This document shows, piece after piece, positions 46,295 through 62,929 of a stretch of 64,000 bases of DNA. The stretch lies in assembly GCA_015486055.1 (NCBI GenBank), contig WFSJ01000025.1, forward strand, positions 1,189 through 65,188, in the 5' to 3' direction. Origin of the DNA: Acidobacteriota bacterium (GTDB lineage: Bacteria; Acidobacteriota; Aminicenantia; S016-38). Numbering within the stretch: the first letter of the stretch is position 1; each line of letters opens with the position of its first letter. A program made the position numbers and the translations under genes. The notes beneath the pieces were generated by a model that saw only the letters and a list, made by a program, of their open reading frames with translations, did no database searches and was not told where the DNA came from.

Positions 46295-46511
46295 TTATTA
46301 TTGGAAAGATTCAGATTGGCATTGCCAGAGAATGAAGCCATACAAAAACTTTGGCAGGAATAAAATCTGCATATGACATTCATCAAAGACAACTCTTCAA
46401 ATTCATCACGTAGAAATGTCTGCCGCCTCATACATAAACCAATAATCATCTTATTGGTTATTATATAACTTTTCGTTCTTTTGTCAACATTTCGAGTGGA
46501 AGAACCTCACT

Positions 46512-47720
46512 CTATTCATATAAATAATTTAACAGGTCTAAATAATCAGATAAAAGCCTTGTTATGAGGAAATTTTCCCTTATCCTTTCTCTTCCATTCT
46601 TTCCCATAGTTTCCCCTAAATTCGGATTTTTAAGGATTTCCACGATCCTTTCAGCAAATTCCTCTGGCCTCTGAGATTCTACAAGGTATCCGCCCTTCCC
46701 ATCTTCTATCTGGAGAGGAATACCACCAACCTTGGAGGCTACTACCGGTCTGCCCTTCCATAATGCTTCTGTTACAGTCAATCCGAATCCCTCTCTTTTT
46801 GATTTCTGGATAACAACCGAGGAAATTCTCTGAAGAGCATTTACTAATATGTCGTTTTCAATGGTTATAAGGATGACATCGCCGCTTTTTACAAAAGGCT
46901 CAGCTCTTTTTTCCACTTTGCTGTAAATTTTCCAGGCTTCAGGGTCATCACTTGCCGTGCTTCCGCAAAGGACAAGTCTCACATCCACTTTTTTTCTTAC
47001 GGCTTCAAATACTCTCAATACTCCCTCAGGATCTTTCCATTTGTCAAATCTTGATACCTGAGAAATAATCGGTTTGTCAAAAGGAATTTCATACTTTTTA
47101 AGGTATTTTTTTATCATGGAAGCAGGAATTTCCATATTCTTAGACGAAAGAGGGTCAATAGCAGGGGATATTATTCTCTGTTCAACAGGAAGGTCTTTTT
47201 TTCTGTATTTTTCGCTTGAGACTATCACCAAGTCATATCTTAAAATATATTCCTTAATGAAATCCCATATTTCTTCATTCGGAGATGAAAGGTCAATATG
47301 ACATCTCCAAACCCAGGGTTGTCTTTTGCTATAGAATCTTACAAGCGGAAGCGGCTGAGGGTCATGCACTATTACAACATCATGGTTTATGTGTGTAAAT
47401 GTGGAAAAATCCTGATTGGTGCGAAGATAAAGTTTCTTTTTTATCTCACTTAGATTAATCTTTTCCCCCTGTAAAGCGTTGTGAAATTTCTTGGTTATTG
47501 AGAAAAAGTCAGGATTACCGTGCAGTATTCTCCACCCAGCTTCTATGCCTATCTCATTCATCAATGGAACTATGGAGGAAAGCATTTCTGCTACTCCACC
47601 ACCCTGATAAGTAGAATTAATATTAACTATATGCTTTCCATAAAGTTTTCTTGCCTTTTTGTAAATTGAGGATATCGCCCCATCCCCTACTATTTTCCTG
47701 TAATCTTCTACACTTCTCAT
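46512..47720 (-). CDS. treT: trehalose glycosyltransferring synthase TreT (GT4)
   Basis: NINSTYQGGGVAEMLSSIVPLMNEIGIEAGWRIL...FFSITKKFHNALQG, WRCHIDLSSPN, QVSRFD.WK and REGFGLTVTEA are near-colinear with Thermococcus/Pyrococcus TreT. Confidence 0.85.
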   Translation of the reverse strand: MRSVEDYRKIVGDGAISSIYKKARKLYGKHIVNINSTYQGGGVAEMLSSIVPLMNEIGIEAGWRILHGNPDFFSITKKFHNALQGEKINLSEIKKKLYLRTNQDFSTFTHINHDVVIVHDPQPLPLVRFYSKRQPWVWRCHIDLSSPNEEIWDFIKEYILRYDLVIVSSEKYRKKDLPVEQRIISPAIDPLSSKNMEIPASMIKKYLKKYEIPFDKPIISQVSRFDKWKDPEGVLRVFEAVRKKVDVRLVLCGSTASDDPEAWKIYSKVEKRAEPFVKSGDVILITIENDILVNALQRISSVVIQKSKREGFGLTVTEALWKGRPVVASKVGGIPLQIEDGKGGYLVESQRPEEFAERIVEILKNPNLGETMGKNGRERIRENFLITRLLSDYLDLLNYLYE

Positions 47721-47723
47721 ATT

Positions 47724-49907
47724 TCACCTCGTTAAAATTCTTATTAATTCCCTGACCTCAGCTACTGAATCTAAGTTATAATTAGCTCTTGACGGGCTCA
47801 AACCTACCTTCAAAGAATATGAACTTTTAGGAAGAACATTAAAGATATCCTCATCTGTCCAATCATCTCCTATACAGAGGATAAAATCCCAATTATTTTT
47901 AGAAAGCCATTCTAATACAGCGCGGCCCTTGTTCACCCCTACAGGTTTTACCTCTATCACCTTATTGCCTTCCATCACTCCAAGATTTAGGTTTGCACTC
48001 AGGTGATAAAGAGCATCCTTCAGCTCACTAATCCTCACAGAGGATAATTTCATATCCGCCTTCCTATAATGCCAGACAAGAGAGAAATTCTTTTCTTCTA
48101 TAAAGGCTCCAGGTGTCCTATCCATGTATAATTCAAGGATTGGTCTGATTTCCTCTTTCCACTCACTTTGGAGCGGCTCTATGGTTTCCCAAGAACCTTT
48201 TCTCTTTTTTACCCACGCCCCGTGTTCAGCTATTAATCCAATATTCAAGGAGCTGAACCACTCATCTATAATTTTCTTATCTCTTCCGCTTGCAATTACT
48301 ATTTCGTTTTTCTTGTCTCTGGCAAGGGACTTTAACAATCTCAAAATTTCCCTATCTGGTTTAGCTTCTTCCGGCCTTCTCGCAAAAGGCACGAGAGTTC
48401 CATCATAATCAAGTATTATCAAACGATTCTTGCCCCTTCTATAAGATTCCAGGAGTTCCTCTCTCTTATTAGATGGAAATTTCCTCGCACGAAACTGCTT
48501 TTGAATATTTTTTATTTGAGAAAGACTACCTATAAAATCTTCAGCCCATCTAAAAATATCATAACGCTTAAGCCTACTTTGCATAATAAGATTTCTCTCT
48601 TCCTTTTCACTCTCAGGCATTGATAACGCCCTTTCTATGGCCTTTGCTATCTCTTCTCTGTTGTTCGGATTTACTATTATTGCTTCTCCAAGTTCAAAAG
48701 AAGCTCCTGCCATTTCACTCAAGATTAGGACTCCGTGTTTGTCTCTCTTTGCCGCTATAAACTCCTTTGCAATAAGGTTCATTCCATCCTTTAAGGGAGT
48801 TATAAGTCCCACATCAGCAATATTATACATAGCTACCAAAGTATAAAAAGAGAGAGCCCTGTAAAAATATCGGATGGGTGTCCAGCCTATTGTGCTATAC
48901 TTGCCGTTGATCTTTCCAATTAATTCGTCTACTTTATGTTTGAGATTTCTATACTGTTCTACTCTTGTTCGCGAAGGAACAGCAATAAGTATAAGTGTTA
49001 CCTTTTCTTTGTATTGAGGATTTTCTTCAAGGAAAAGGTCAAAGGCTTCAAGCCTTTCAGGAATGCCCTTTGTATAATCAAGTCTATCTATAGATAATAT
49101 CACCTTTTTCTCTTCCAATGTCTTCCTGAATCTATTAATTTCTTTCTGCACTCTGTTTTTCTCTAAAGCTTCTTCGAAACGGCGGTAATCAATTCCCATA
49201 GGGAAGGTATCTGTCTTTAATGTCCTGTTTCCTATGATCATCTGTCCAAGGGTATGTTCATAGTTCAAAATGCGGAGAATACAATCAAGAAAATGCTGAA
49301 CATAATCATAAATATGAAATCCTATGAGATCGGCTCCCAATAAGCCTTCAAGAATTTCCTTTCGGTTCGGAAGAAGTCTGAATATTTCATAAGGTGGAAA
49401 AGGTATGTGCAGAAAGAATCCAATTTTGGAATTCGGCAGTTTATCCCTTATCAACTTCGGAAGAAGCATAAGATGGTAATCATGTATCCAGATGGTATCA
49501 TCGGATTTCACATATTTCAGAATGTGGTCCAGAAATATCTTATTCACCCTTTTATACTCTCCCCATAGTTCCTTATCATAGATAACATACTGGGTAAAAC
49601 AGTGAAACAGAGGCCAGATAGTCTTATTACAGAATCCGTAGTAATACGACTCAACATTTTTTTTGGAGAGAAAAACTGGATAGTTATTGTATTGAGAAAT
49701 TAATTTTTCCTGAAGTTCCTCTTTTTCCTTACGATTGAGTTTTTCTATAGGAATACCAGGCCATCCAATCCAGATACTTTCATGAGTTTTAGAGAAAGAT
49801 ACAAGCCCTGTGGTTAATCCTCCTACACTTTGCCGGAAATGTAAGACTCCTTTCCTCTTTTCAACCACAGTAGGAAGACGATTGGAGACAATCATTATGC
49901 GGGACAA
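47724..49907 (-). CDS. otsBA: bifunctional trehalose-6-phosphate synthase / trehalose-6-phosphate phosphatase (OtsA-OtsB fusion, TPSP)
   Basis: The N-terminal GT20 domain (IMIVSNRLP, HDYHLMLLP) is followed by a C-terminal HAD TPP domain (LILDYDGTLVPF, GDDWTDED). Length is 727 aa. Confidence 0.85.
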   Translation of the reverse strand: MSRIMIVSNRLPTVVEKRKGVLHFRQSVGGLTTGLVSFSKTHESIWIGWPGIPIEKLNRKEKEELQEKLISQYNNYPVFLSKKNVESYYYGFCNKTIWPLFHCFTQYVIYDKELWGEYKRVNKIFLDHILKYVKSDDTIWIHDYHLMLLPKLIRDKLPNSKIGFFLHIPFPPYEIFRLLPNRKEILEGLLGADLIGFHIYDYVQHFLDCILRILNYEHTLGQMIIGNRTLKTDTFPMGIDYRRFEEALEKNRVQKEINRFRKTLEEKKVILSIDRLDYTKGIPERLEAFDLFLEENPQYKEKVTLILIAVPSRTRVEQYRNLKHKVDELIGKINGKYSTIGWTPIRYFYRALSFYTLVAMYNIADVGLITPLKDGMNLIAKEFIAAKRDKHGVLILSEMAGASFELGEAIIVNPNNREEIAKAIERALSMPESEKEERNLIMQSRLKRYDIFRWAEDFIGSLSQIKNIQKQFRARKFPSNKREELLESYRRGKNRLIILDYDGTLVPFARRPEEAKPDREILRLLKSLARDKKNEIVIASGRDKKIIDEWFSSLNIGLIAEHGAWVKKRKGSWETIEPLQSEWKEEIRPILELYMDRTPGAFIEEKNFSLVWHYRKADMKLSSVRISELKDALYHLSANLNLGVMEGNKVIEVKPVGVNKGRAVLEWLSKNNWDFILCIGDDWTDEDIFNVLPKSSYSLKVGLSPSRANYNLDSVAEVRELIRILTR

Positions 49908-50001: not shown

Positions 50002-53000
50002 CTAATGCTTACCGCTCAAAAGGAATGAAACTGTAGGGGCTATAATCAGTGTGCTCAGGGTTGCAGTTACAAGTCCTCCTATCACAGTTATGGAAAAGGG
50101 CTGGAATATCTTTGAACCCACTCCAATCCCAGTTGCTACAGGGATAATGGCAAAAATTGTCGTTGAGCTTGTCATAAGAATGGGTCTGAGCCTCACAGAA
50201 GCTGCTTCTCTAAGTGCCTGGGCGACTGAAATCCCGGAATTCATTCTCCTGTTTGCAAAGTCCAGAAGCACTATGGCATTGTTCACAGATATTCCCAGGA
50301 GGGTTATAACACCCATAGCCACTGAAATATCAATACCCTGACCTGTTATAAACAGGGTTAAAATGGCACCTACTATGGAAAATGGAGCAGTTATCATAAT
50401 TATCAAAGGTTGAATCCAAGAATGGAATTCAAGAGAAAGTATAAGATATATCAGAAAAATCGCTGCAAGGGCAACAAAAATAAGCTCCAATGCCCCTTTT
50501 ATAATATTTCTATACTGACCTGCTATCTCCACTCTGTATCCCGCTGGAAGATGTAATTTTGCAAATCTCTTCTTAAGATGATTCGCCACGCTGAGAACAT
50601 TTCCCTCCACCTCACCAAGAATTGTCATCTCCCTTTCTCCATTTATCCTTGTAAGTTGCGAGGGAAAACTATCCATTTTTATCTCAGCAAGCCTGCCAAG
50701 AGGAATCATTTCTCCTCTTGTTGTCCTTATGGGAAGCATTTTCAGATTGTCTATGGACTTTGTCCCATAATCAAGGTCTATAAGGACACTTATTTCTTCC
50801 TTCTGCTTCAATATCCTCGTCGCCTCAAGTCCCCAAAAAGCTGCTCGCAGGGTTAAAAGCAGTTCATTTAAATTAACTCCATACTGGGAAAGGCTGGAAC
50901 GGTTTATTCTCACAACAATTTCTGAGATCTTTGCCCTTGATGGATTGAAAATATTGGTTATAGAGCCTTCACTTTCCATAATTTTCTCAACTTTTCCAGC
51001 AATATCTGTAAGTCTGGAAAGTTTCTCTCCGTAAATTGTTACTGCAAAGAAAGATGATATTCCTGAAAGGCTCTCATCCATTTTCTCCTGAGTAGGCTGA
51101 TGATAAAGAAATGCTAACCCTTTGAACTGTGAATATTTCCTCTTGAGGGAGTCTATTATTTCATTTACATTTCGCTTGCGTTCCTTCTTAGCTTTCAACT
51201 TCATCAGGATTTCTCCCCTGTTTACTCCTTCTATTTGGTATCCAACCTCAGGGGACCCAGTTCTCCTGTAAACACAGGAAACATCAGGGTCTGCCATAGC
51301 TGTTCTGTCAAGCTCATCGCCTATACGATTGCTCTCTTTGAGGGAAGTTCCAGGGGGCATTATGTATTCTACAAGTATAGAACCCTCATCAATTGGGGGA
51401 AGAAGCCCAACTCTTTTTATAAAAACCGCAGATAACCCCGCCATGAAAAAAGCGAGGAGGGAAATTCCAATTATTTTCCAGGGATGAGTGAACGAATACC
51501 TCAGAACTTTATCCACCCATCCGGAGAACCCTGATAGAAATTTTTGCCCTGGGACTTTAATAGACTTTGCCTTTTCCTTCCTGAGAAGAACAGGAACAAG
51601 ACTGAGAGAAAGGACAAGAGAGGTTAAAAGAGCAATGCTTATTGTAAATCCAAATGGCCTCAAAAATAGCCCTATTATTCCGCCTACAACAGTAAGTGGA
51701 AGGAATGCAGCAACAGTTGTGAAAGTGCCAGAAGCATCTGGCCCTGCTATCTCCAAGGTTCCCTCTAAGCTTGCATCCTTTTCTTTTTCCCCTTTCTGAA
51801 TATGGCGGAATATGTTTTCTGTAACGACTATCGCATCATCCACTATCATTCCAACAGCTAAGGCAAGGGCTGAAAATGTGATAACATTTAGCCCCACCCC
51901 AAGATATTCCATAAGAGCAAGGGTGGTAAGCAGGGTTAGAGGAATTGTAGCTCCAACTATAAGGGTCAATTTTGTGTCTCCTGTGAAGATAAACAGAATC
52001 AGAATTGCAAGGACAGCCCCAACAAGAAGGTCATTTAATATTGTGTTCCTCGCTTCCCCTATTATTTCTGATTGGTCATAGAACTTCCTTATCCTGACCC
52101 CTGAGGGAACTTGCTTCCTGAACCTTTTAACTGCTTCCTCAACACCTTTCACTACACTTATTGTGCCTGCACCTGGCTGTTTCCTGACTATGAAGGCAAC
52201 TGCTGGAAAAGCATCTCCCATTATCTCATAGTGCCTTTTTACCTTTCCCTCATTAACTCTTACTATAGAACCAAGAAGAACCTTTCCATTCCCTGTTTTT
52301 ATGGGGATAGAAAGGATATCATCTATGCTCATAAGACGGGAATCTCCCCTGAGAGGATATTCCCTGGAACCTCTGCTGATATAACCTTCTGCTTTTGTTC
52401 TGTTGCTTTTTCTAATGCTCTCTTCAAGGTCTGAGATGCCGAAGTTAAACCTCAACATTTCTTCAGGCGGAACATGTATTATGTAAGCTCTCCTATCCCC
52501 TCCAAAAACTTCCACAAAGGAGACCCCCTGGATTCCCATAATCTGATTGCTCAGGTCATATCTCACCATCTTTCTGAGGTTTATCAGGCTTTCTCCTCCT
52601 CCGTAAATAACATAGCCTACTACCTCCTGAAGAGTTGTTCCTATATTTTCAAGTCTTGGAATAGCTTCCCGCGGCAGGATGCCTGAAAGAGAAGAAAGCC
52701 TTGCTTGAACGAGCTGGCGAGCTTCATTCACAGTAGTTCCAGAGGAAAATTCAACAGTTACCTTGGAGATACCCTGAGATGATACTGAAAGCACTCTTTT
52801 TACTCCCTGGATTCCCCTCAGTTCATTTTCAACGGATCTTGTTATCAATATCTCCATATCCTCAGGGGAAGCTCCGGGATAATGAGTTATAACATTTACT
52901 ATAGGAATATTAAGATTCGGGAAAAGCTCAACAGGCGTTTTGAAGATTGAATAAACACCTGCCAGAACTATGAGGGCCACAAAAATATCCATAACTCTTG

Positions 53001-53034
53001 GGTGTTTAATAAGCCAGTGTAAAGTTCCTCTCAA
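50002..53034 (-). CDS. RND efflux transporter permease (AcrB/CzcA superfamily)
   Basis: 1010 aa with 12 TM helices, two large periplasmic loops, and the conserved TM4 region AVGMIVDDAIVVTENI. Confidence 0.9.
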   Translation of the reverse strand: MRGTLHWLIKHPRVMDIFVALIVLAGVYSIFKTPVELFPNLNIPIVNVITHYPGASPEDMEILITRSVENELRGIQGVKRVLSVSSQGISKVTVEFSSGTTVNEARQLVQARLSSLSGILPREAIPRLENIGTTLQEVVGYVIYGGGESLINLRKMVRYDLSNQIMGIQGVSFVEVFGGDRRAYIIHVPPEEMLRFNFGISDLEESIRKSNRTKAEGYISRGSREYPLRGDSRLMSIDDILSIPIKTGNGKVLLGSIVRVNEGKVKRHYEIMGDAFPAVAFIVRKQPGAGTISVVKGVEEAVKRFRKQVPSGVRIRKFYDQSEIIGEARNTILNDLLVGAVLAILILFIFTGDTKLTLIVGATIPLTLLTTLALMEYLGVGLNVITFSALALAVGMIVDDAIVVTENIFRHIQKGEKEKDASLEGTLEIAGPDASGTFTTVAAFLPLTVVGGIIGLFLRPFGFTISIALLTSLVLSLSLVPVLLRKEKAKSIKVPGQKFLSGFSGWVDKVLRYSFTHPWKIIGISLLAFFMAGLSAVFIKRVGLLPPIDEGSILVEYIMPPGTSLKESNRIGDELDRTAMADPDVSCVYRRTGSPEVGYQIEGVNRGEILMKLKAKKERKRNVNEIIDSLKRKYSQFKGLAFLYHQPTQEKMDESLSGISSFFAVTIYGEKLSRLTDIAGKVEKIMESEGSITNIFNPSRAKISEIVVRINRSSLSQYGVNLNELLLTLRAAFWGLEATRILKQKEEISVLIDLDYGTKSIDNLKMLPIRTTRGEMIPLGRLAEIKMDSFPSQLTRINGEREMTILGEVEGNVLSVANHLKKRFAKLHLPAGYRVEIAGQYRNIIKGALELIFVALAAIFLIYLILSLEFHSWIQPLIIMITAPFSIVGAILTLFITGQGIDISVAMGVITLLGISVNNAIVLLDFANRRMNSGISVAQALREAASVRLRPILMTSSTTIFAIIPVATGIGVGSKIFQPFSITVIGGLVTATLSTLIIAPTVSFLLSGKH

Positions 53035-54068
53035 CGATTGTTCTCCTTTCTAAAAGAATGAACAATGAGTATCCCAAAGCCTATCACAATAAGCAACAAT
53101 GCAAGTTCCAAACCATGTATTCTTAGAAAAGCATAGGTGTAGAGCCAGGCCGCATAAGTAAGGCGATCAATCCATTCGTAATCAGGGGAATGCAATCTCA
53201 CAACTTTTATGTTAAGTTTTTCTCCTTTAACACTCAGTTTCAGATAGTGAAAGAAGGAATGGCGAGGGTCAGTACCCCACAATTCAGCTCCAGCTCCGCC
53301 TGTTATTATATAAGGAATCCCTCCCCATTTGCCGGAGAAATAACTGTGAATGTGAGAAGTGAAGATATATGTTACCCTGTATTTTTTAAAGAGGCCAAGC
53401 AATTCTTCTGCAGTTTTCTTAGAAAGACAGTGATGGTGGATTCCTCCCCTCGGGTCGTAAAGAGGAATATGCATGAAAACAAGGCGATGAACACAATCCC
53501 GTGCATTTTTCAGCTCATTCTCAAGCCATTCCCTTTGCCAGAGGCCGAGACTTCCATTGGCATCATCTAAGACTATAAAACATGTCCTGCCTATTTTAAA
53601 AGAATAAAAAAATGGGCCAAAGATTTCATAATAAAGTCCTCGCCCATCCCCTTTTAGCTCATGATTTCCCATCGCAACAAGAAAAGGTTTATGGAAATTT
53701 CTTCTTATCTGCTTGAGAAAATAGCGATATTTCTCCTTTTCCCCATCATATACAAGGTCTCCTATGTCTATAGCAAAAGAAATTTGCCTGTCATTTTCAA
53801 TTTTCGTTAAGAGTTTTTCAAAAACAAAGTGACTGTTTTTATTGTCCCCGAATACAGCAAAGGAAAAATCTTCGGGGTTGGAAATTTTAATTTGCTTTAA
53901 ATTTATGCTGAGCCAATCATGGGCTGGTAAGGGTGAAAACTTATTCCAGACCTCAAGGAAAAGGAGCGCAATTATGGAGAGGGTAAACAGTGCAAATACA
54001 AAAGGAGATTTTTTTGCTGCCTCTTTAAGGAAGAAAATAAAATTTTTAACCCCTTTTTTTCTCATCAA
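53031..54068 (-). CDS. membrane-anchored calcineurin-like metallophosphoesterase
   Basis: MPP motifs are present: FGDNK, IDIGDLVYDG, GNHE, MHIP and TSHIHSY. It has N- and C-terminal TM helices. ATGA-type 4-nt overlaps on both sides link it to the MFP and RND genes. Confidence 0.75.
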   Translation of the reverse strand: MMRKKGVKNFIFFLKEAAKKSPFVFALFTLSIIALLFLEVWNKFSPLPAHDWLSINLKQIKISNPEDFSFAVFGDNKNSHFVFEKLLTKIENDRQISFAIDIGDLVYDGEKEKYRYFLKQIRRNFHKPFLVAMGNHELKGDGRGLYYEIFGPFFYSFKIGRTCFIVLDDANGSLGLWQREWLENELKNARDCVHRLVFMHIPLYDPRGGIHHHCLSKKTAEELLGLFKKYRVTYIFTSHIHSYFSGKWGGIPYIITGGAGAELWGTDPRHSFFHYLKLSVKGEKLNIKVVRLHSPDYEWIDRLTYAAWLYTYAFLRIHGLELALLLIVIGFGILIVHSFRKENNR

Positions 54069-55150
54069 TCAGGGACCTTAAAAACTTTGTTAAAATTCTG
54101 ATTTATCAGTTCATAAGCACCGAGAATTGCGACCTTTTCCCTCTCTTTTAATCCTGAAATGACTTCAACATGCCCGTTATTTTTAAGACCAAGAATTACA
54201 GCCCTTTTCTCATATCTTCCTCCCTTCTGGACGAATATATAAGCTTTATTCCTGTAATACACCACTGCAGAGGCTGGAAGGGAGAGGGAGTTTTTATGAA
54301 TCTCAAGGATTAGTTTTCCCCTCACAGGTTCTCCTGGACTGAGCCCTGAATTAATTTCACTTCCCTCTATCCATACTACAAGCCCTCCTGAAGGTATATT
54401 TCCTGGAAAAGCTCTCTTCACCTTTCCTTTAAGCTTTTTACCCTCCGATGTTATTACAATAGCCTTCATTCCTATTGGAGATTTTAGAATTCTACTGAAT
54501 ATTCTGGCCTCTATTTTGAGGTTAGCGGGGTCAATCACCTCCCCGAGGATTTGTCCTTTCTCAACTTCCTGTCCTGCATTAACCTTTCTGGAGGCAAAAA
54601 TACCGTTAATTGTTGCCCTTACTTTTGTATTTTCCTCAAAAAGCCTCAGCTTCTTTTCTGCTGAGACAAGGGCACCTTTAATCTTTTGAGCATTTTCCTC
54701 TGCCTCCTTTAGCTTATCAAGAGATATTATTCTGGTTTTTACACCTTCCCTTCTCAAAGAAACAATCCTCATAGCAAGGGAATACCTCTTTTTAAGGGAT
54801 TTCGCTCTGGATTTCAGGATTTCCATTTCAGTAGAAATAACAGGGCCACCAAGCTGAAAAATAACTGTTCCTTTTTTTACCCTTTCCCCATCTCTTACTA
54901 ATATTGAATTTATCCTTCCGCTCTCCATGGAAATCAGCTTCACATCACTTTTGCTGAAAGTCAAGCCTAAAAATGGAATACTCCTTACGAAATCTCCACG
55001 AGAAGGATAACCTGTCTTTATAAAAGAAAGCTTGGTTTCGGAAAAATAGGACTTTATCTTCCGGGTATTATGCAATAGCACAAGGGAAAAAGCCCCTGCT
55101 ACGGCAAGAAAAACTATGATAATAATAACTTTTGTAGTTTTGGTTTTCAT
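54065..55150 (-). CDS. RND efflux periplasmic adaptor (membrane fusion protein, HlyD family)
   Basis: A signal anchor and coiled-coil hairpin are followed by beta-barrel domains. The ORF reaches 55240, but the Met at 55150 (MKTKTTKVIII) abuts the TolC-like stop. Confidence 0.8.
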   Translation of the reverse strand: MKTKTTKVIIIIVFLAVAGAFSLVLLHNTRKIKSYFSETKLSFIKTGYPSRGDFVRSIPFLGLTFSKSDVKLISMESGRINSILVRDGERVKKGTVIFQLGGPVISTEMEILKSRAKSLKKRYSLAMRIVSLRREGVKTRIISLDKLKEAEENAQKIKGALVSAEKKLRLFEENTKVRATINGIFASRKVNAGQEVEKGQILGEVIDPANLKIEARIFSRILKSPIGMKAIVITSEGKKLKGKVKRAFPGNIPSGGLVVWIEGSEINSGLSPGEPVRGKLILEIHKNSLSLPASAVVYYRNKAYIFVQKGGRYEKRAVILGLKNNGHVEVISGLKEREKVAILGAYELINQNFNKVFKVPD

Positions 55151-55151
55151 C

Positions 55152-56552
55152 TTATCCTCCAGTTTTCCTTCTTGAAGCTCTGCTATCTCTAAAAGGCAAA
55201 TATCTCCCAGAGACAAGCTCAAGGGCCAATGCAAGGTCACTGAGGTTTTCTTTCAGCCTCAGAAGGGATAATTTCTGTTCAATAAGTTCCTTCCTTGCAG
55301 AGTAAAAGGAGAAGATGTCCGATTCTCCTTTCGCCGAAGCATCTTTTAGGACTGAAACAAGGTGAGCTTGTGCTTTTATATAATTTTCCTTAGTGTGTAT
55401 TCTGGATCTGAGGAATTTCATATCTTTTATAATCTCTACAACTTTCGAACGGACTTCAAAAACTCTAAAGTTATATTCATCATACAATTTTTTTCTTGTG
55501 GCCTTTTCAAGCTCAATTTTACCCCTTTTCCTATTAAAAAAAGGCATCTCAATAGAAACCCCAAAGTTAGAAGTTAACACATTCTCAACATCCATTGCAC
55601 GGGCAAACTTAATGCTTAGTCCCGGGAACTGGGAAAGAACTGCTGCTCTCAATCTTGCCTCCTGACTCTTGTAGCCAATCCTGAGGGCAAGAAGATCAAG
55701 GCGACGGTTTTCAATACCCCTGAGAACCTGTGCGCTGCGAGGAAGACTGCCCCAGCGGGAAAAGTTAACTTCTTCCTGGAGAGACAACATTTTCCCTGGT
55801 GGAATCCCTATTGTTCTGTTTAGAGCAAGTCTCTCTCTTTCATTTTCGTTTTTCAGATTTATGAGAGCGAGCTTCACTCTTTGACATTCTCTCCTTGCAA
55901 TTTCCATGTCTTTGCAATTTTTTCCACCTATCTTCAGAGCCTTTACTATTAATTTCAGGTTCCTTCTTAAAAGGCTTCCTTCTTCCATAACTAAAGGGAG
56001 CATCTTCCCTATCCAGAAAAGGCGTAAGGCATGCAACTTTGCAGCCTCAGCAACCTGCCATTCTTTCCAGGCTATAGAAATTTCAACGGATTTAAGTCTT
56101 GATTTCGCCTCATCTATTTTCGCCCCCCTCGATATGAGCGAAGATAAACCAAAATTTATCCCAAATTCAAAACCCTTAACAGCTTCTTCTTTCCTGCCTC
56201 CTATGGGCTTTTCAAAACCATAGGAAAAAGAGGGGTTGGGAATAAGCCCTGCCTGAATTAATTGAGCCTTCACTATGCCCATTTGGTCACGGACTGCCCT
56301 CAGTTCAGGATTTCCTGCAACAGCAAGAAGAGCAGCTTCATCAGGGGAAATTCCATCTCTCAAATCAATCCTTACAGGCTTCAAAATGGGGTGATTGATC
56401 TTTTTCGCCATTATTTCAAGCTTGCTTATCCTGGGAACAGGTGAGTTCTTCTCAAGCAGAAGAGGATGATAAACTGCACAGCCAGCAAGGAAAAAAATCA
56501 AAAAAGCAGTGGGAAGAAGACACTTTAAAAACTTAGTTAAGCTTTCTTGCAT
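55152..56552 (-). CDS. TolC-family outer membrane efflux protein (lipoprotein)
   Basis: It has a lipobox FLAGC and two TolC-type repeat halves with long helices. Length is 466 aa. Confidence 0.8.
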   Translation of the reverse strand: MQESLTKFLKCLLPTAFLIFFLAGCAVYHPLLLEKNSPVPRISKLEIMAKKINHPILKPVRIDLRDGISPDEAALLAVAGNPELRAVRDQMGIVKAQLIQAGLIPNPSFSYGFEKPIGGRKEEAVKGFEFGINFGLSSLISRGAKIDEAKSRLKSVEISIAWKEWQVAEAAKLHALRLFWIGKMLPLVMEEGSLLRRNLKLIVKALKIGGKNCKDMEIARRECQRVKLALINLKNENERERLALNRTIGIPPGKMLSLQEEVNFSRWGSLPRSAQVLRGIENRRLDLLALRIGYKSQEARLRAAVLSQFPGLSIKFARAMDVENVLTSNFGVSIEMPFFNRKRGKIELEKATRKKLYDEYNFRVFEVRSKVVEIIKDMKFLRSRIHTKENYIKAQAHLVSVLKDASAKGESDIFSFYSARKELIEQKLSLLRLKENLSDLALALELVSGRYLPFRDSRASRRKTGG

Positions 56553-56646
56553 ATTTGAAATTTACTCGCATCGAATTTCCCTGTCAAGCTTTTGGAAAAA
56601 ATGCTATTGTAACCCTTTTCATACCAGAATTTATTGATTTATTGTA

Positions 56647-56691: not shown

Positions 56692-56895
56692 ATGAAAGAA
56701 TGCAAATGGTATCCTGTTTGTCCAATCAAAAGATTTTACGAAGAGGGAAAAATAGATAGGAAGTGGGTGGAGCTTTACTGCAAAGGAAATTGGAAAAGGT
56801 GTGTGCGATACCAAATGGAAGAAGCAGGGGAACCTCATTCGGACTGTATGCTTCCAAACGGAGCTATAGACGAGAAACTATGTAGAGAAAAATAA
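56692..56895 (+). CDS. small cysteine-rich protein (6 Cys plus 1 His; zf-like 'cysteine-rich small domain' type), likely metal-binding
   Basis: MKECKWYPVCP...YCKGNWKRC...HSDCMLPNG...C. The ORF track starts at a TTG at 56680, but the ATG at 56692 is preferred. Confidence 0.45.
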   Translation: MKECKWYPVCPIKRFYEEGKIDRKWVELYCKGNWKRCVRYQMEEAGEPHSDCMLPNGAIDEKLCREK

Positions 56896-56941: not shown

Positions 56942-57030
56942 AAGGATTTTCAGATTAGTCTTTCTTCTCATATTGGTTAGAACAGATGACGTGATTATCT
57001 TACAGGGAATTCTTGACGAAAAGAGCAAGA
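56942..57030 (+). repeat. 89-bp direct repeat, copy 1 (carries the MNT-HEPN promoter)
   Basis: AAGGATTTTCAGATTAGTCTTTCTTCTCATATTGGTTAGAACAGATGACGTGATTATCTTACAGGGAATTCTTGACGAAA... is identical over about 80 nt to 57817-57905. TTGACG-17nt-TATTAT (57013-57041) sits at its 3' end. Confidence 0.85.
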
Positions 57031-57056
57031 GGGGATATTATAACAAAGGAGAAGAG

Positions 57057-57371
57057 ATGAAAAAGCGGGAAAGGATAAAGAAAACGATTTTAAAGACAGC
57101 GGAAGAGGAAGGGCTTACAGTCTCTCGTATAATCCTCTTTGGCTCAAGAGCGAGGGGGGAGGCAAAGCGAGACAGCGATTGGGATGTTCTTGTTGTTGTA
57201 GAAGAACATGTTGGCAGAAAGAAAAAGTGGGAACTGGCTGCGGAAATTAGATGCCGTTTAAGAGATATTCCTATAGATGTTCTTATAAAAACAAAGGGTG
57301 AGCTTAAAAAATACGAGAACTTCTATGGAACAGCTACGAGAGAAGCATTAAAAGAAGGAGTGGCTCTTTGA
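57057..57371 (+). CDS. minimal nucleotidyltransferase (MNT; Pol-beta superfamily), antitoxin-type partner of HEPN
   Basis: LFGSRARGEAKRDSDWDVLVVV carries the GS...DxD NTase motif. An AAGGAG RBS precedes the ATG at 57057. The ORF-track start at 56973 lies inside the non-coding repeat. Confidence 0.8.
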   Translation: MKKRERIKKTILKTAEEEGLTVSRIILFGSRARGEAKRDSDWDVLVVVEEHVGRKKKWELAAEIRCRLRDIPIDVLIKTKGELKKYENFYGTATREALKEGVAL

Positions 57372-57772
57372 TAGATGAAAGAGTGGAAAAATGGCTCCAA
57401 AAAGCCCTTAATGACTTGGAGGCTGCGAAGCATCTTTTAAAAGTCTCTCCTCCAGAGGAAATTGTGACAGAAGCTGTTTGCTTCCATTCTCAGCAGGCTG
57501 TAGAAAAATTTCTAAAAGCTTTTTTGACTTCCTATAATATCCCTTTTGGAAGAACTCATCATCTTGAATATATAGTAAATCTTGCCTCAAAGGTTGAGGC
57601 TTCCATTTTAAGTTTTTTGGAAGATATGAAAAAGCTCGCACCTTACGCTGTTGAGGTGCGCTATCCCGACGATTTTTACGAACCAACATTAAAAGAGACA
57701 AAAGAAGTTTATGAAATAGCTCTCAAGGTGAAGAAATTTGTCTTACAAAAGATAGGGCAAAATAGAAAGTGA
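57368..57772 (+). CDS. HEPN domain protein (toxin-type partner of MNT)
   Basis: HSQQAVEKFLKAFL...GRTHHLEYI is the HEPN R-x-H core. It overlaps the MNT stop (TTG start at 57368, or GTG at 57383). Confidence 0.75.
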   Translation: MIDERVEKWLQKALNDLEAAKHLLKVSPPEEIVTEAVCFHSQQAVEKFLKAFLTSYNIPFGRTHHLEYIVNLASKVEASILSFLEDMKKLAPYAVEVRYPDDFYEPTLKETKEVYEIALKVKKFVLQKIGQNRK

Positions 57773-58045: not shown

Positions 58046-59209
58046 TTAGAAGGAATACTTTATCTCAATAAAAGCCTTTGAGAGCTTCTTGCTCCTTCCG
58101 AAAATGCTGGGCTCAGGTCCCTCAAATATTGATGCTCCTATATACATATTTACACCATCGGAAATTTCATATGTAAATACTGGAAGGAGAAAATAATCTC
58201 CATCGCCAAAATTGTAAACCCCTATGAACCTTAAATTATAATATCCTTCCTTTTTGTAAGAAATCATCCCGGAGGCAGAGTCTCTTTTCCTCCTTTCCAT
58301 TGGGTTCATAAATCCTTCTCTCCATTTAAAAACCCTGTTTTCTATGAATTGAAGGTTGAGAGTTAAATTGTTTGATATATTCCAGTCTGCACCAAGGACA
58401 TACTCGAGATGTGGATTTCTCACAAAGGGGTTGTATCCTTCCCTGTCCTGCGTGAGATAATAAGCTCCTTCTCCTTTGAAAACGAATCTTCCTATTGCAT
58501 AGTCAAAATCAGCACCGAATACCTGCTGAGGTTTATACTCTATGTTCAGAGCGTTTAATTCTGGGATTACAGAGGGGAAAAGTTCAAATCCCCTGAGGTA
58601 TGAAGTTGAAAAATTGAGGCCACCAACAGAAGAGGAAAATCTTACTCCTTCCTGCCAGTTTTCGGGTTTTTGTTCAGGCAGTATTGTCTTTGCCCCTGTA
58701 ATTTCCATCCCCGTTTTGTTGGGTCTAAAAAATGGGACAAAGACAAATTCAAGGCTTGAGGTTCCGAAATACCAGTCCATCTTCGCCGCAGTTACAGAAA
58801 TCCTGTAATCCTCTATCTCAGCGGTCATATTTGTGTAATCCCAGGGAGTTATATTGTCTGTAGGGTTTACCCAGTCCGTTCTTCCCCAGAAGACAAATTG
58901 CTTCCCGAGTTTTAAATCAACAGAGGAAAAATGGAACCTAATGTATGCCTCAACAGGGTAAATTTTAAGAACAGAAGACCTCGGTTCGGAAGGAACTCCT
59001 GTGCTGTTTCTCTCATCAAGATCAAAGTCAAAGGAAGCAAAAAAATCAATGTTTTTTCTCTTCTTTTTCATTGAGAGCTGAAGTCTTGTCCCGTATCTGT
59101 CAAAGCTATATGGCAGGGTGAGTTTTGGATGGGCAAAGAACTTAAGATAACCATGGAAATCGCCTGAGACCAGAATAAGAGGAAACAGCAAAGCTATTAA
59201 TTTTCTCAC
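58046..59209 (-). CDS. putative outer-membrane beta-barrel protein (partner of LolA-like/MMPL module)
   Basis: It has a signal peptide, alternating amphipathic beta-strand pattern, and a C-terminal aromatic residue (IEIKYSF) typical of BAM substrates. It overlaps the LolA-like gene by 4 nt. Confidence 0.5.
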   Translation of the reverse strand: MRKLIALLFPLILVSGDFHGYLKFFAHPKLTLPYSFDRYGTRLQLSMKKKRKNIDFFASFDFDLDERNSTGVPSEPRSSVLKIYPVEAYIRFHFSSVDLKLGKQFVFWGRTDWVNPTDNITPWDYTNMTAEIEDYRISVTAAKMDWYFGTSSLEFVFVPFFRPNKTGMEITGAKTILPEQKPENWQEGVRFSSSVGGLNFSTSYLRGFELFPSVIPELNALNIEYKPQQVFGADFDYAIGRFVFKGEGAYYLTQDREGYNPFVRNPHLEYVLGADWNISNNLTLNLQFIENRVFKWREGFMNPMERRKRDSASGMISYKKEGYYNLRFIGVYNFGDGDYFLLPVFTYEISDGVNMYIGASIFEGPEPSIFGRSKKLSKAFIEIKYSF

Positions 59210-59973
59210 TGGACTAAGTATCTCTTTGTGAACAGTTCCTTGGAAATCCTCTGATTTATTTTTATCGCTTCAAATTCCATTTCGCTCTGACTTCCTGAGA
59301 GAACATTCTTCATCAAAAGGTCTGTCTGAAACCATATATCCTCTATCTTTTTTATCTCCTTAACATAAAGGACCTTCCACAAGGTGGCTGTCCTGTCGTA
59401 GTATTCTGCGTGGACAATGCTCCAGCGGTTCGGGTCAACCCAGTGGATTATCTTGCTGTATTTAGTATCCTTCTCTATTTTTGGGCCTGAAGGAACAGCT
59501 TCAATTCTATAGCATTTTATACTATTGAACTTCACAAATCCAAGGTTTCTGTATTTCCAGTCCTTGAGTTTTGGCTTTCCTATGTCATAATAGCTAAAAT
59601 CAGAACCCATAAATGCCCCACCCTTCCCGCTTGCAGCAATTCTTTTTATCCTCCTTAGAGCTGGAAGATAAAGATATCTTTCGTCTTCGCCCTTTGAATG
59701 CTCTATCAAAAGAAATGCTGTTCCCTCAATATCAGGAGGATACAGGAATTTCATTACCATATCAGAATCCTGCTCTGTCCTCTTTCTTGAATACAACTTG
59801 ATTTTTCTTGTCCTTGTCCTTCCTCTTACCATAATTTTCATTGTTATTTCCCCTTCCATATCATTCCACTCTGTTTTGTTCACGACCTTTTCCATCACCG
59901 CTCTTCCAGTAAGTTCTTCACTGTAAAGCGGGATTAAAAGAACCACAGTTAAAATTAATGCTAATTTTTTCAT
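59206..59973 (-). CDS. outer membrane lipoprotein-sorting protein (LolA-like family)
   Basis: It has a signal peptide. ERYLYLPALRRIKRIAASGKGGAFMGSDFSYYDI matches the LolA-like family signature. Confidence 0.7.
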   Translation of the reverse strand: MKKLALILTVVLLIPLYSEELTGRAVMEKVVNKTEWNDMEGEITMKIMVRGRTRTRKIKLYSRKRTEQDSDMVMKFLYPPDIEGTAFLLIEHSKGEDERYLYLPALRRIKRIAASGKGGAFMGSDFSYYDIGKPKLKDWKYRNLGFVKFNSIKCYRIEAVPSGPKIEKDTKYSKIIHWVDPNRWSIVHAEYYDRTATLWKVLYVKEIKKIEDIWFQTDLLMKNVLSGSQSEMEFEAIKINQRISKELFTKRYLVQ

Positions 59974-62321
59974 TCTTTCCTCCTTTCCGCTGCCTTTCTC
60001 AGGGACTTTGGCTTGAATGTCACGAAGTATATTGGAAGTAAAGTCAGGGCAGCGAAAGCTGTTGTTATCATTGTCAAAGCAAGAAGGAATCCCATTGCCC
60101 TTGCTCCTTTAAACATTGAGAACACAAGGAGCATGAATCCTGAAGCAACAACAAGAGAGTTAAAAACTATTGCAACCCCTGAGGTCTCCATTGAGGGAGT
60201 AAGGCTCTCATTATAATCTTTGGTTCTCATCTCAAATATGTATCTATGGATAAAATGTATTGCATAATCAACTCCTATTCCAATGGCAAGGCTTGATGTT
60301 ACCATTGTCTGAATATCGAGTGGAATACCAAGGGCTCCCATTATTGCAAAATTGAGGAAGATGCCGAAGAAGAGGGGAACCGCATTGAAAATGCCAATTA
60401 TCGCTGAGCGGAACATTATGGTAGTGAGTGCCCATACCAAAAGAAGTGAAGCAATTAAGCTCAGAAATTGCCCCTTTATCACCATTTTTCTTACAACGAG
60501 AATCAGCTTTGCCATTCCTGTTATGTCTGCCTTTATTCCCTTTGCTCTCTCCCTTAGAAATTTCCGAAGCTCCTTATCAATCTTCCTCAGCTCAGAGTCC
60601 CTGTCTGTTTTCACAAAAATTGCTACCCTTGAATTTCTGTAATTGAAATCAACCATATTTGCGAAGTCCTCAGGGGAAGAAGAAAGCTCATAAAGCTGAA
60701 GAAGCTGGGCAATAAGTTTTTTTCCCTCAACTTTGAAGGTTTTTTCCACTTTTTTGCCACCTTCATAAATAAAAGTCTTCTCTTCCTCTATTTCATTGGG
60801 AATCCTATAATAAGAAGAATCGTTGTCGTGGAGAGCTCTGTTTATGAGCTTTACGAAATCAGCAATGGATTGGGTGGAACCAACATTGGGGAGCTTACTC
60901 ACCTGTGTTTCAAGCTGGTCCATTGTTTTAAGAACCGCTGGTTGCTTAATGTATCCGTCCTTATCCCCTTCAAAAAGGACATAAAATGCAGTTGTGCCTG
61001 CAAAATGTTTATTTACGAACTCCGCTGCTTTTCTTACAGGATTTTTCTTTGGAAACTGAGAAATTGAACTTGATTCAACTTTAAGTTTTGAAACTGCAAC
61101 AACTGAAAGAAGAAGAACTATCAGGATTCCTATTAAAACCCCTTTTTTCTTTCTAACAAGGAAATTTGAATATTTCGTCATTACTCCCCTCAGCATCCCT
61201 TTATCAGTTCTCCAATTCTTACCAGCCTTTATCTTCAAAAGAGAAAGCACAGCAGGAACGAAGGAAAGCGACCATATAAGCGCAGATAAGACTCCAAAGG
61301 CTGAAAACAACCCAAGCTCTTCAAGGGATTCCATGTGGCTCGTGTTGAGAGCGATGAATCCTGCCATTGTTGTGAGGGAGGTCATTATAACAGGGGAATA
61401 TAGGTCATGTACAACATTTTTCACAAGCTCCTTTGCATCGGAATACAGTTTGGCCCTCTGATAATAATGGGTGAGGATGTGAATGCTGTCAGCTATACCT
61501 ATCGCCATTATGAGAATTGGCAACATCTCCGTGGAATGGCTGAGGGGCCTTCCTGTAAGAGCCATAAGCCCAAGGGTCCATATAACACTTGATAGGACAA
61601 CTGTCAATGGAATAAGCACCCCTCTCACACTTGAAAATATGAAAAGAAGGAGTAGGAATATGAGTATTATCCCTGATGTGAAGAATATACCCATATCCTT
61701 AGCTATTCCTTTGCTTATATAGAAATTGACAATTGGCTCCCCTGTTGCAAAGACCTTCCCCTTGTGGTTTTTTGAGAAATTATCAAGGAGGGCAAGGAGC
61801 TTTTGCGAGAATTTTTCCTCATCTGCACTTTTACTTAGAGAAACTATTATTGCGGCTGACTTCCAGTCATCTGCTATTAAGCTTTTAAGAAAGGTAGGGT
61901 TTTGGGAAAGGCGGCTTTTCCAGCTCTCTATGTCCTTTTCAGTTTCGGGAAGATCCCTCAACGCTTCTTCAACATCTATGCCCTCCTGCGGGGCTTCAAT
62001 TATCTTAACATTTGTTGGACTAATTACTGAATATGCTTCGGGAAACTCCTCAAGTTTTCCTGTAAGCTCCGCTATTTCCTTCGCCCCTTCAATAGAGAAA
62101 ACATCCCCTTTATATATCACGATTGCCATTGCTTTTGATGGAAAAATCTCCTTCATCTTATCGTAAAGCCTTTTTGCAGGAATGCTTTTCGGAAGAGCCG
62201 CTGTTATATCAGGGTTCATTTTGAGGTTTTTCATCATATATCCGAAAAATACAGTTATTAGGAAAAGGACTATCAATACTTTCCATGGATTTTTTGCAAC
62301 CCAATTTATATAGCTTTTCAT
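59970..62321 (-). CDS. MMPL-family RND-superfamily exporter (HpnN-like)
   Basis: 783 aa with two 6-TM bundles each followed by a periplasmic domain. It has an SSD-like region. Confidence 0.85.
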   Translation of the reverse strand: MKSYINWVAKNPWKVLIVLFLITVFFGYMMKNLKMNPDITAALPKSIPAKRLYDKMKEIFPSKAMAIVIYKGDVFSIEGAKEIAELTGKLEEFPEAYSVISPTNVKIIEAPQEGIDVEEALRDLPETEKDIESWKSRLSQNPTFLKSLIADDWKSAAIIVSLSKSADEEKFSQKLLALLDNFSKNHKGKVFATGEPIVNFYISKGIAKDMGIFFTSGIILIFLLLLFIFSSVRGVLIPLTVVLSSVIWTLGLMALTGRPLSHSTEMLPILIMAIGIADSIHILTHYYQRAKLYSDAKELVKNVVHDLYSPVIMTSLTTMAGFIALNTSHMESLEELGLFSAFGVLSALIWSLSFVPAVLSLLKIKAGKNWRTDKGMLRGVMTKYSNFLVRKKKGVLIGILIVLLLSVVAVSKLKVESSSISQFPKKNPVRKAAEFVNKHFAGTTAFYVLFEGDKDGYIKQPAVLKTMDQLETQVSKLPNVGSTQSIADFVKLINRALHDNDSSYYRIPNEIEEEKTFIYEGGKKVEKTFKVEGKKLIAQLLQLYELSSSPEDFANMVDFNYRNSRVAIFVKTDRDSELRKIDKELRKFLRERAKGIKADITGMAKLILVVRKMVIKGQFLSLIASLLLVWALTTIMFRSAIIGIFNAVPLFFGIFLNFAIMGALGIPLDIQTMVTSSLAIGIGVDYAIHFIHRYIFEMRTKDYNESLTPSMETSGVAIVFNSLVVASGFMLLVFSMFKGARAMGFLLALTMITTAFAALTLLPIYFVTFKPKSLRKAAERRKE

Positions 62322-62893: not shown

Positions 62894-62913
62894 TTTGACC
62901 TTATAGTTACATT

Positions 62914-62929
62914 TTGACTTATCAGTCAA
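62914..62929. promoter_or_regulatory. palindromic candidate TetR operator in the divergent TetR / GT-C intergenic region
   Basis: TTGAC-TTATCA-GTCAA is a perfect 5-6-5 palindrome. It is flanked by additional TTGAC (62895) and GTCAA (62935) half-sites. Confidence 0.4.

Follow-up and report, generated by a model that had tools for sequence, protein, structure and literature searches.

Why should a membrane-anchored phosphoesterase be encoded inside the operon of a tripartite efflux pump, and on what would it act there? The question is raised by a 64,000-nucleotide stretch of contig WFSJ01000025.1 from an Acidobacteriota bacterium (hereafter the window), in which the interval 50002..56552 is filled by four minus-strand open reading frames (ORFs) encoding, in the order of transcription, an outer membrane factor (OMF), a membrane fusion protein (MFP), a metallophosphoesterase (MPP) and a resistance-nodulation-division (RND) permease. 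Both coordinates and Pfam assignments agree with this gene order, which an earlier note on the same DNA had given together with the view that a phosphoesterase is no known component of such pumps; indeed, our literature search found no paper linking a metallophosphoesterase, or a PAP2-type phosphatase, to an RND operon. We propose, at a probability of about 0.4, that the outward-facing MPP would cleave a phosphate or pyrophosphate ester bond of a membrane lipid and that it is produced together with the pump as a partner in envelope defence or remodelling.

MPP forms an integral part of the efflux operon and is tightly coupled to its neighbours. Only 1 nt separates the OMF stop codon TAA (55154..55152) from the MFP ATG at 55150 and, because GGAGG stands 5 nt before that ATG, we take MFP to be the 361-residue protein rather than the 391-residue longest ORF. 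The MFP stop codon TGA (54067..54065) and the MPP ATG at 54065 have 1 nt in common (TGATG), or the overlap amounts to 4 nt (TTGA) if MPP translation begins at TTG 54068, and a 4-nt overlap (TTGA) likewise links the MPP stop codon TGA (53033..53031) to the RND TTG start (53034). The overlapping codons that had been described at both ends of MPP are thus confirmed, and only their letters need correcting, from ATGA to TGATG or TTGA at the upstream junction and to TTGA at the downstream one. In homologous loci the MPP/RND junction reads ATGA in Thermosulfurimonas dismutans (locus L013) and TGATG in a metagenomic relative (L094). Although the public gene call for the RND permease (P0268, 996 residues) begins at the internal Met15 (52992, versus TTG 53034), both these junctions and the conservation of RND residues 1–14 among homologues make TTG 53034 the better start. 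G+C content is even over all four genes, and the overlapping stop and start codons imply co-transcription of the pump and MPP. A promoter-like sequence lies directly upstream of the OMF ATG, but such sites are no more numerous in the region than in shuffled sequence and it is only a candidate. Finally, an assembly artefact or a one-off insertion is ruled out by the independent L094 and L013 contigs, which carry MFP, MPP and RND genes in the same order, overlapping or nearly abutting.

What kind of enzyme is embedded here? MPP scores 47.8 bits against Pfam PF00149 (Metallophos; cutoff 21.5) over residues 69–243, and its matches in NCBIfam are limited to weak ones to CpdA/SpdA. Among 5.8 billion clustered proteins (90%-identity clusters) we found 664 homologues at E ≤ 1e-3, the best 120 of which are nearly all 300–380 residues long and 42–64% identical to MPP, while a profile search run exhaustively over 1.84 billion representatives returned 606 50%-identity cluster representatives at E ≤ 1e-30. 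MPP therefore belongs to a large, conserved and unnamed family of proteins of about 340 residues with two transmembrane (TM) helices, in which we found no characterised member and which extends over bacteria and archaea, including ANME-1, bacteria of the Candidate Phyla Radiation (CPR), DPANN, Thermotogae and Actinomycetota.

In an alignment of 99 sequences the metal ligands D74, D103, N134, H199, H238 and H240, together with the catalytic H135, are invariant or at least 90% conserved. All five motifs of the fold had been reported for the window protein: motifs II (GD103), III (GN134H135E), IV (H199) and V (SH238IH240) are indeed canonical, whereas motif I (GD74NKNS) keeps its aspartate and lacks the histidine of the D-x-H signature, a departure that is family-wide. 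Purple acid phosphatase (PAP)-type metallophosphoesterases likewise lack the motif I histidine. Further conserved residues are specific to the family (W51, S78, D204-P205-R206, H269 and H273), and H317, which sits in an aromatic juxtamembrane helix, is nearly invariant in a 23-sequence alignment (A1). The AlphaFold2 model of MPP (pLDDT 94.9, pTM 0.90) consists of an N-terminal helix (residues 21–43), a beta-sandwich beginning about 25 residues on and a single C-terminal helix (298–343). Foldseek matches the sandwich to the PAPs, GpdQ and Rv0805 with a probability of 1.0 and E values of 1e-13 to 1e-11, a PDB profile search reaches PAPs at 1e-13, and the nearest solved structures (PAPs, GpdQ, Rv0805, PhoD and SMPDL3A) share 12–21% sequence identity with MPP. 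Based on the conserved ligands and the confident fold model, MPP is predicted to be a catalytically competent binuclear metallophosphoesterase.

Membership of the purple acid phosphatases themselves is excluded on two grounds. The column of the PAP tyrosine ligand, occupied by tyrosine in the window protein (GDLVY106), varies among Y, F, H, Q and E across the MPP family, and Pfam detects no Pur_ac_phosph_N domain, the N-terminus being taken up by a TM helix instead. MPP and the PAPs, GpdQ and Rv0805 have in common the fold and the binuclear-site motifs II–V; they differ in the PAP N-terminal domain, in the two TM anchors of MPP and in sequence (identity below 21%), and the known members of those families act on soluble esters.

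Where the active site faces bears directly on any link with the pump. The window MPP and 92 of its 99 relatives have exactly two TM segments, so that the anchors suggested earlier for both ends of the protein are borne out, at residues 22–40 and 316–334. The N-terminal tail is rich in Lys and Arg (seven in residues 2–19) and, across the 99 relatives, the mean number of Lys plus Arg is 3.3 in the N-tail and 3.9 in the C-tail, versus 1.2 and 1.0 in the flanks on the domain side. In natural fusions, moreover, the segment that follows TM2 is either a family 4 glycosyltransferase (GT4) or a PAS-HisKA-HATPase-REC array, both of them cytoplasmic modules. Since two TM segments, the positive-inside bias and these fusion architectures concur, the catalytic domain is predicted to lie outside the cytoplasmic membrane, on its periplasmic face, with both tails in the cytoplasm; in the model it is joined to the TM helices with almost no linker and would thus lie flat on the membrane. 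This predicted topology is compatible with association with the pump, a point that the earlier note had left to be checked, and it would also put the catalytic centre on the outer side of the membrane, as expected of a polyprenyl-diphosphate phosphatase.

To place the operon in a wider context, we assembled the gene neighbourhoods of MPP homologues from 79 genome loci (one genome per species), 10 metagenome loci and contig look-ups for close homologues. ORFs in these loci were called by a simple longest-ORF heuristic, and many contigs are short, which makes a missing neighbour weak evidence. An RND gene lies within 10 kb of MPP in 14 of the 79 genome loci (tblastn with the window proteins) and is adjacent to it on the same strand in about nine. 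The MFP-MPP-RND order of the window recurs in L094, which holds the closest homologue (54% identity for MFP, 64% for MPP and 54% for RND), and in T. dismutans (44%, 50% and 59%, respectively), where the OMF is 45% identical to its window counterpart. Elsewhere MPP follows RND (L012, L014, L021, L033, L050 and L089), precedes MFP and RND (L059) or is divergent from a PAP2-OMF-MFP-RND operon (L001, L002 and L084). In a neighbour-joining tree the pump-linked loci fall into at least five separate MPP clades, interleaved with pump-free loci, and the RND proteins concerned form at least three groups by their TM10 residue (Asn, Glu or Arg at the position of AcrB K940). Within three genes on either side of MPP we counted 9 RND genes among 292 ORFs, where about 1–2 would be expected; the corresponding Poisson P of 4e-7 to 9e-5 is rough, as it assumes that RND genes make up 0.3–0.6% of all genes and ignores phylogeny. 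The association of the MPP family with efflux operons is real, and the outcome named beforehand as fatal to the proposal, that homologues never occur near efflux genes, did not materialise.

These distributions bear on two other readings of the place of MPP in the operon. It could be a genomic hitch-hiker, inserted by chance and kept by a shared promoter although functionally unrelated to efflux, as the pump-free surroundings of most family members and the absence from the window of the usual DedA, PAP2 and GT4 partners (see below) would suggest. We regard this as improbable, because the arrangement is conserved at 50–64% protein identity in three genomes, because the associations arose independently in the five or more clades, with at least three RND groups, and because PAP2 behaves alike in RND operons. 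Still more improbable is that MPP acts as a structural accessory subunit, its two TM helices docking on the permease and its periplasmic domain touching the porter domain or MFP. RND pumps with small TM accessory proteins are known (AcrZ and YajC), and coupling of MPP between MFP and RND in three genomes would favour co-assembly. Such a role, however, sits poorly with the conserved catalytic residues, with the wide occurrence of the family in organisms that have no tripartite pump, with the varying place of MPP, which may lie among, behind, ahead of or divergent from the pump genes, and with close RND orthologues that lack MPP (L101) or have PAP2 instead (L102). Given this wide family distribution and variable gene position, MPP is unlikely to be an obligatory structural subunit of the pump; the idea of a pump-specific component, or of a new obligatory subunit, is not supported, as the family occurs in lineages without tripartite pumps, most loci carry no efflux gene and other partners are commoner.

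If the pump is not the main partner, with what does the family keep company? Within three genes of MPP in 74 genome loci we found PAP2 in 14, DedA in 12, GT4 in nine and DedA-PAP2 fusions in four; a lipid-type neighbour is present in 25 loci, versus an efflux neighbour in 10. DedA (UptA-like), PAP2 (undecaprenyl-diphosphate (UndPP)-phosphatase-like) and GT4 proteins are thus stronger and commoner partners of MPP than the pump. Several gene strings are repeated, namely DedA>GT4>MPP, PAP2>MPP>DedA>GT4 and OMF>MFP>RND>MPP>PAP2>HK>sigma54-RR (HK, histidine kinase; RR, response regulator). By Pfam, the neighbours include PAP2, VTT/DedA, Glyco_transf_4 plus Glycos_transf_1, PLD-type cardiolipin synthase and PEMT, as well as MFS, an ArnT-like PMT_2 protein and Lgt. 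Their top NCBIfam matches are UptA, undecaprenyl-diphosphatase of the YbjG/SepP type, ArnT and monoglucosyl-diacylglycerol synthase, all below the curated cutoffs, and the neighbour in ANME-1 is a genuine cardiolipin synthase. In ANME-1/Methanophagales (L024, L026, L027, L031, L032 and L036) MPP has a conserved context, formed by an unannotated 173-residue membrane protein (c22), a small K-channel-like protein and the cardiolipin synthase. OmpR-type two-component systems adjoin several members of the family, with PhoB, CopR and PmrA models scoring about equally.

The same partners recur as fusions. P0131 joins DedA to an MPP domain in which every catalytic residue is intact, MPP-TM-GT4 proteins occur in Pseudosulfitobacter and Halomonas and as P0239, P0265 and P0224, and P0129 combines MPP with PAS-HisKA-HATPase-REC and has lost part of its ligands. 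Because metal ligands are lost in the GT4 and kinase fusions, their MPP domain is probably not hydrolytic and binds or senses rather than cleaves; such dead ectodomains may serve as ligand sensors for the cytoplasmic GT4 or kinase modules. On marine Pseudosulfitobacter plasmids an LPG_synthase_TM flippase-like gene precedes MPP-TM-GT4, and the fusion loci include 7016–9244 of L082 and 6887–9091 of L083.

PAP2 also enters efflux operons in its own right. An operon with an RND orthologue 55% identical to that of the window (L102) has the order RR-HK-OMF-MFP-RND-PAP2-(DedA-PAP2), whereas L101 has no such gene, and from this pair we infer that, in the RND clade of the window pump, an outward lipid phosphatase (PAP2 or MPP) is a recurrent and optional add-on. 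Across several phyla, PAP2 genes and a DedA-PAP2 fusion are found within OMF-MFP-RND operons, whether or not MPP is present as well; the loci concerned are L102 (10152–12137), L001/L002/L084 and L021/L033/L050/L089.

Of the roles entertained earlier for the enzyme, which included lipid or nucleotide signalling, a lipid one fits these neighbours and fusions best, and nothing points to nucleotide signalling. Which lipid is less clear-cut, and one alternative takes its model from PlcP-Agt, in which a Mn-dependent MPP encoded beside a GT4 glycosyltransferase acts on membrane lipid head groups, as described in Sinorhizobium, in SAR11 and for Pseudomonas aeruginosa PA3219/PA3218. By analogy, the window MPP would be a phospholipase C that cleaves phospholipid head groups to yield diacylglycerol, from which a GT4 enzyme would make glycolipid, and the pump operon would be regulated along with this remodelling, perhaps in response to phosphate or cationic-peptide stress. 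The operon pairing of MPP with GT4 matches the known PlcP-Agt architecture, which we compared as described rather than by sequence, and DedA>GT4>MPP or MPP>DedA>GT4 clusters occur in nine loci in addition to the MPP-GT4 fusions. The top NCBIfam matches of the GT4 neighbour include alpha-monoglucosyl-diacylglycerol synthase and transferases for the glycolipid anchor of lipoteichoic acid, phospholipid enzymes are represented among the neighbours by cardiolipin synthase, PEMT and PAP2, and PHO4, PhoU and PPK2 genes lie close to one homologue. A PlcP-like activity is a rival to be taken seriously, although we consider it unlikely: NCBIfam offers MPP nothing beyond the weak CpdA/SpdA matches, the ligands are lost precisely in the MPP-GT4 fusions, an outward phospholipase would have to supply a cytoplasmic GT4, and archaeal members would face ether lipids of opposite stereochemistry. 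The window itself lacks a GT4 lipid synthase, the nearby GT4-fold gene being TreT, and differs from PlcP-Agt further in that the MPP family places its domain outward between two TM helices. The PlcP literature, as far as we searched it, reports no association with RND pumps.

A second alternative is suggested by the structural relatives. MPP could be a membrane-tethered, PAP-like ecto-phosphatase acting on soluble phosphate esters in the periplasm, either in phosphate scavenging or in modifying or detoxifying a phosphorylated compound before its export by the pump. The closest relatives in sequence and structure (PAPs, GpdQ, PhoD and Rv0805) would agree with this, as would the two-component systems beside several members, which score about as well against PhoB as against CopR and PmrA, and the phosphate-transport genes near L095. 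We judge it unlikely as well, since it leaves unexplained both the repeated adjacency and fusion to DedA, PAP2 and GT4 and the conserved aromatic juxtamembrane helix with its nearly invariant H317; furthermore, a domain held flat on the membrane through both of its ends, as the model suggests, would be needless for soluble substrates.

We therefore return to the proposal of an outward lipid phosphoesterase that cooperates with the pump. MPP, held by one TM helix at each end, would position its active domain directly on the periplasmic face of the membrane and there cleave the phosphate or pyrophosphate ester of a lipid embedded in the membrane. The favoured substrate would be a polyprenyl diphosphate or a species linked to polyprenyl (di)phosphate, with a phospholipid head group as the alternative; the preference is based on the DedA fusion, on the UptA-, UndPP-phosphatase- and ArnT-like partners and on the presence of the family in archaea, CPR bacteria and DPANN, all of which, to our knowledge, run polyprenyl-phosphate cycles. 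Through translational coupling MPP would be made together with the OMF-MFP-RND pump; while the pump would clear an amphiphilic agent from the periplasm or the outer leaflet, MPP would convert or regenerate a lipid, either the target of that agent or one needed in remodelling, following the logic of BcrAB and BcrC. Both the lipid substrate and the cooperation with the pump are read from gene context.

Several observations weigh against this proposal. Most metal ligands are lost in the MPP-GT4 and MPP-kinase fusions, the window contains no DedA, PAP2 or lipid-type GT4 gene, and MPP and PAP2 often share a cluster, so that the two are not simply redundant. The GT4 partners match diacylglycerol glycolipid synthases as well as anything else in NCBIfam, which favours a phospholipid/diacylglycerol route over a polyprenyl one, and the closest solved relatives of MPP act on soluble esters. 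Moreover, 44 of the 74 loci have neither an efflux nor a lipid-type neighbour, although many of these contigs are short, and the operon of the L101 RND orthologue (57% identity) carries no phosphatase at all.

The context of MPP nonetheless invites comparison with known pairings of transport and lipid-carrier chemistry. In bcrABC and bcrABD operons an export pump is co-transcribed with an enzyme of the undecaprenyl-(pyro)phosphate cycle, and the two form one resistance unit; pump and MPP in the window may do likewise. The likeness is purely functional, as the bcr systems combine an ABC transporter with a PAP2 or BacA-type protein in monoderms, whereas the window combines a tripartite RND pump with an MPP. 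The adjacency and fusion of DedA and PAP2 are interpreted in the literature as an UndPP phosphatase followed by an undecaprenyl-phosphate flippase. DedA and PAP2 flank MPP in many loci, and the DedA-MPP fusion mirrors the DedA-PAP2 fusions; the phosphatase fold differs (PAP2 versus MPP), and dephosphorylation of UndPP by MPP would be by extension from these arrangements.

An MPP-fold precedent for a lipid-linked substrate is provided by LpxH, which cleaves the pyrophosphate bond of such a substrate at the membrane surface; it is a peripheral enzyme of the cytoplasmic face that lacks TM anchors and has UDP-2,3-diacylglucosamine as its specific substrate. LpxH does not appear among the top 50 Foldseek matches of the MPP model.

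A bolder version of the lipid proposal, which we consider doubtful, is that the two-TM outward MPP family constitutes a third and so far overlooked class of lipid-carrier phosphoesterases beside BacA/UppP and PAP2, and a built-in enzymatic partner of RND pumps. The carriers would be undecaprenyl- or dolichyl-diphosphate or phosphate-linked, and in several anaerobic phyla that branch deeply the RND pumps would come with either MPP or PAP2. The arrangement would then be the diderm counterpart of BcrAB-BcrC, coupling efflux of an agent that binds the lipid carrier to periplasmic regeneration of that carrier or, in a variant, coupling export of a lipid-linked product to carrier regeneration.

With a full-length 12-TM ACR_tran permease, an MFP that scores 109 bits against TIGR01730 RND_mfp (NCBIfam cutoff 94.9) and an OMF in one operon, the pump of the window is tripartite. 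TM4 of the permease reads VDDAIVVTEN and thus contains the Asp-Asp proton-relay pair, a DDA signature that we take to be HAE-1-like in the Nies classification. TM10 (~50230..50250), by contrast, has Asn at the AcrB K940 position (SVNNAIV versus SAKNAIL), as does the whole orthologous group; in comparisons with L013, L012, L016, L035, L045 and L059, other MPP-adjacent RND groups have Glu or Arg there, with the TM4 Asp-Asp and the TM11 Arg retained. No NCBIfam subfamily model claims the protein, the best, RND_permease_2, scoring 638.7 bits (cutoff 1250) and CusA/CzcA 486 bits (cutoff 701), and its best PDB matches, MdtB and ZneA, are about equidistant. Compared with the canonical HAE-1 pumps AcrAB-TolC, MexAB-OprM and MdtABC, the full-length ACR_tran permease, MFP, OMF and TM4 Asp-Asp pair are shared, while the OMF-MFP-x-RND order, the TM10 Lys-to-Asn change and the extra enzyme gene inside the operon are different. 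A heavy-metal efflux pump with a metal-handling MPP was also considered, prompted by the JGI label CzcA on many homologues, by weak metal-system matches of the two-component systems, MFP and OMF and by ZneA as a top PDB match; it is not favoured in view of the TM4 DDA signature and because, its own cofactor aside, nothing connects MPP with metals.

The MPP fold, RND pumps and modules of a transporter plus a phosphatase are already known; what is new is the two-TM ecto-MPP family, its linkage to DedA, PAP2 and GT4 and its embedding in RND operons. If the lipid proposal is right, RND operons of Thermodesulfobacteriota, Nitrospirota, Calditrichota, Deferribacterota, Aquificota and Bacteroidales would supply, along with the pump, an enzyme for editing a lipid of the membrane on its periplasmic side, and the resistance logic of transporter plus lipid phosphatase would reach from Gram-positive ABC to Gram-negative RND systems. 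Through its neighbours and fusions with DedA flippases, PAP2 phosphatases and GT4 enzymes, the family is tied to undecaprenyl-phosphate recycling and lipid remodelling, a field in which missing enzymes are still sought, and MPP, the product of a single gene whose predicted topology is clear and whose catalytic residues are defined, is a candidate open to direct test.

Table 1. Coordinates of the efflux operon, of the parts of MPP and of the neighbouring transport cluster (window positions; aa, amino acids)
Feature	Coordinates	Strand	Basis or remarks
OMF, TolC-like, 466 aa	55152..56552	-	Pfam OEP 3.7e-14; lipoprotein-type N-terminus (..FLAGC)
MFP (periplasmic adaptor), 361 aa	54065..55150	-	Pfam HlyD_3/HlyD_D23; NCBIfam TIGR01730 RND_mfp
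Membrane-anchored MPP	53031..54068	-	Pfam Metallophos 3e-12; 344 aa from ATG 54065, 345 aa from TTG 54068
RND permease, 1010 aa	50002..53034	-	Pfam ACR_tran 2.2e-228; full-length
MPP N-terminal TM helix, residues 22-40	53946..54002	-	Hydropathy and positive-inside rule; model helix 21-43
MPP catalytic beta-sandwich domain, residues ~66-290	53196..53870	-	Alignments A1, A2; Foldseek; PDB profile search
MPP C-terminal helix, residues 298-343	53037..53174	-	Aromatic juxtamembrane AWLYTYAF, H317, TM2, basic tail
MPP TM2, residues 316-334	53064..53120	-	Hydropathy
MFP-stop/MPP-start overlap TTGATGA	54062..54068	-	Read from sequence
RND start region	53031..53048	-	Shine-Dalgarno AAGGAG (53048..53043), 8-nt spacer, TTGA overlap (53034..53031)
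Candidate promoter TTGACA-17-TAAATT, directly upstream of OMF ATG	56559..56587	-	Consensus match only
TetR regulator	62929..62318	-	Second RND-type cluster
HAE3/MmpL/HpnN-like transporter, 783 aa	62321..59970	-	Second RND-type cluster
LolA_like/DUF1329 protein	59973..59206	-	Second RND-type cluster
DUF1302-like outer-membrane protein	59209..58046	-	Second RND-type cluster

The surroundings of the operon hold a second, different RND-type cluster on the minus strand (58046..62929), 1.5 kb upstream, which resembles an export set for lipids or hydrophobes and makes two envelope-transport systems neighbours. Between the two transport clusters lies an MNT nucleotidyltransferase/HEPN pair with a 4-nt overlap (56973..57772, plus strand), which is a type II/VII toxin-antitoxin-like module. 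A small Cys-rich ORF (56692..56895, plus strand; MKECKWYPVCPIKRFYEEGKIDRKWVELYCKGNWKRCVRY...) is divergent from the OMF gene and encodes 67 residues, or 71 from an upstream TTG; it has no Pfam match and could act in metal or redox binding or in regulation.

On the other side, an OtsA-OtsB fusion and TreT (46512..49907, minus strand) follow directly downstream of RND on the same strand, across a 94-nt gap in which we found no terminator-like site. TreT orthologues also occur near MPP homologues in L099 (4260–5450, 51% identity) and L080 (15800–16987), in one MPP clade only; the proximity is likely shared synteny, or it may reflect a link to trehalose. Finally, a perfect sigma-70 consensus (TTGACA-16-TATAAT, 12/12; 46460..46487, minus strand) immediately follows treT and precedes a class-II aminoacyl-tRNA-synthetase-like gene (46195..45245).

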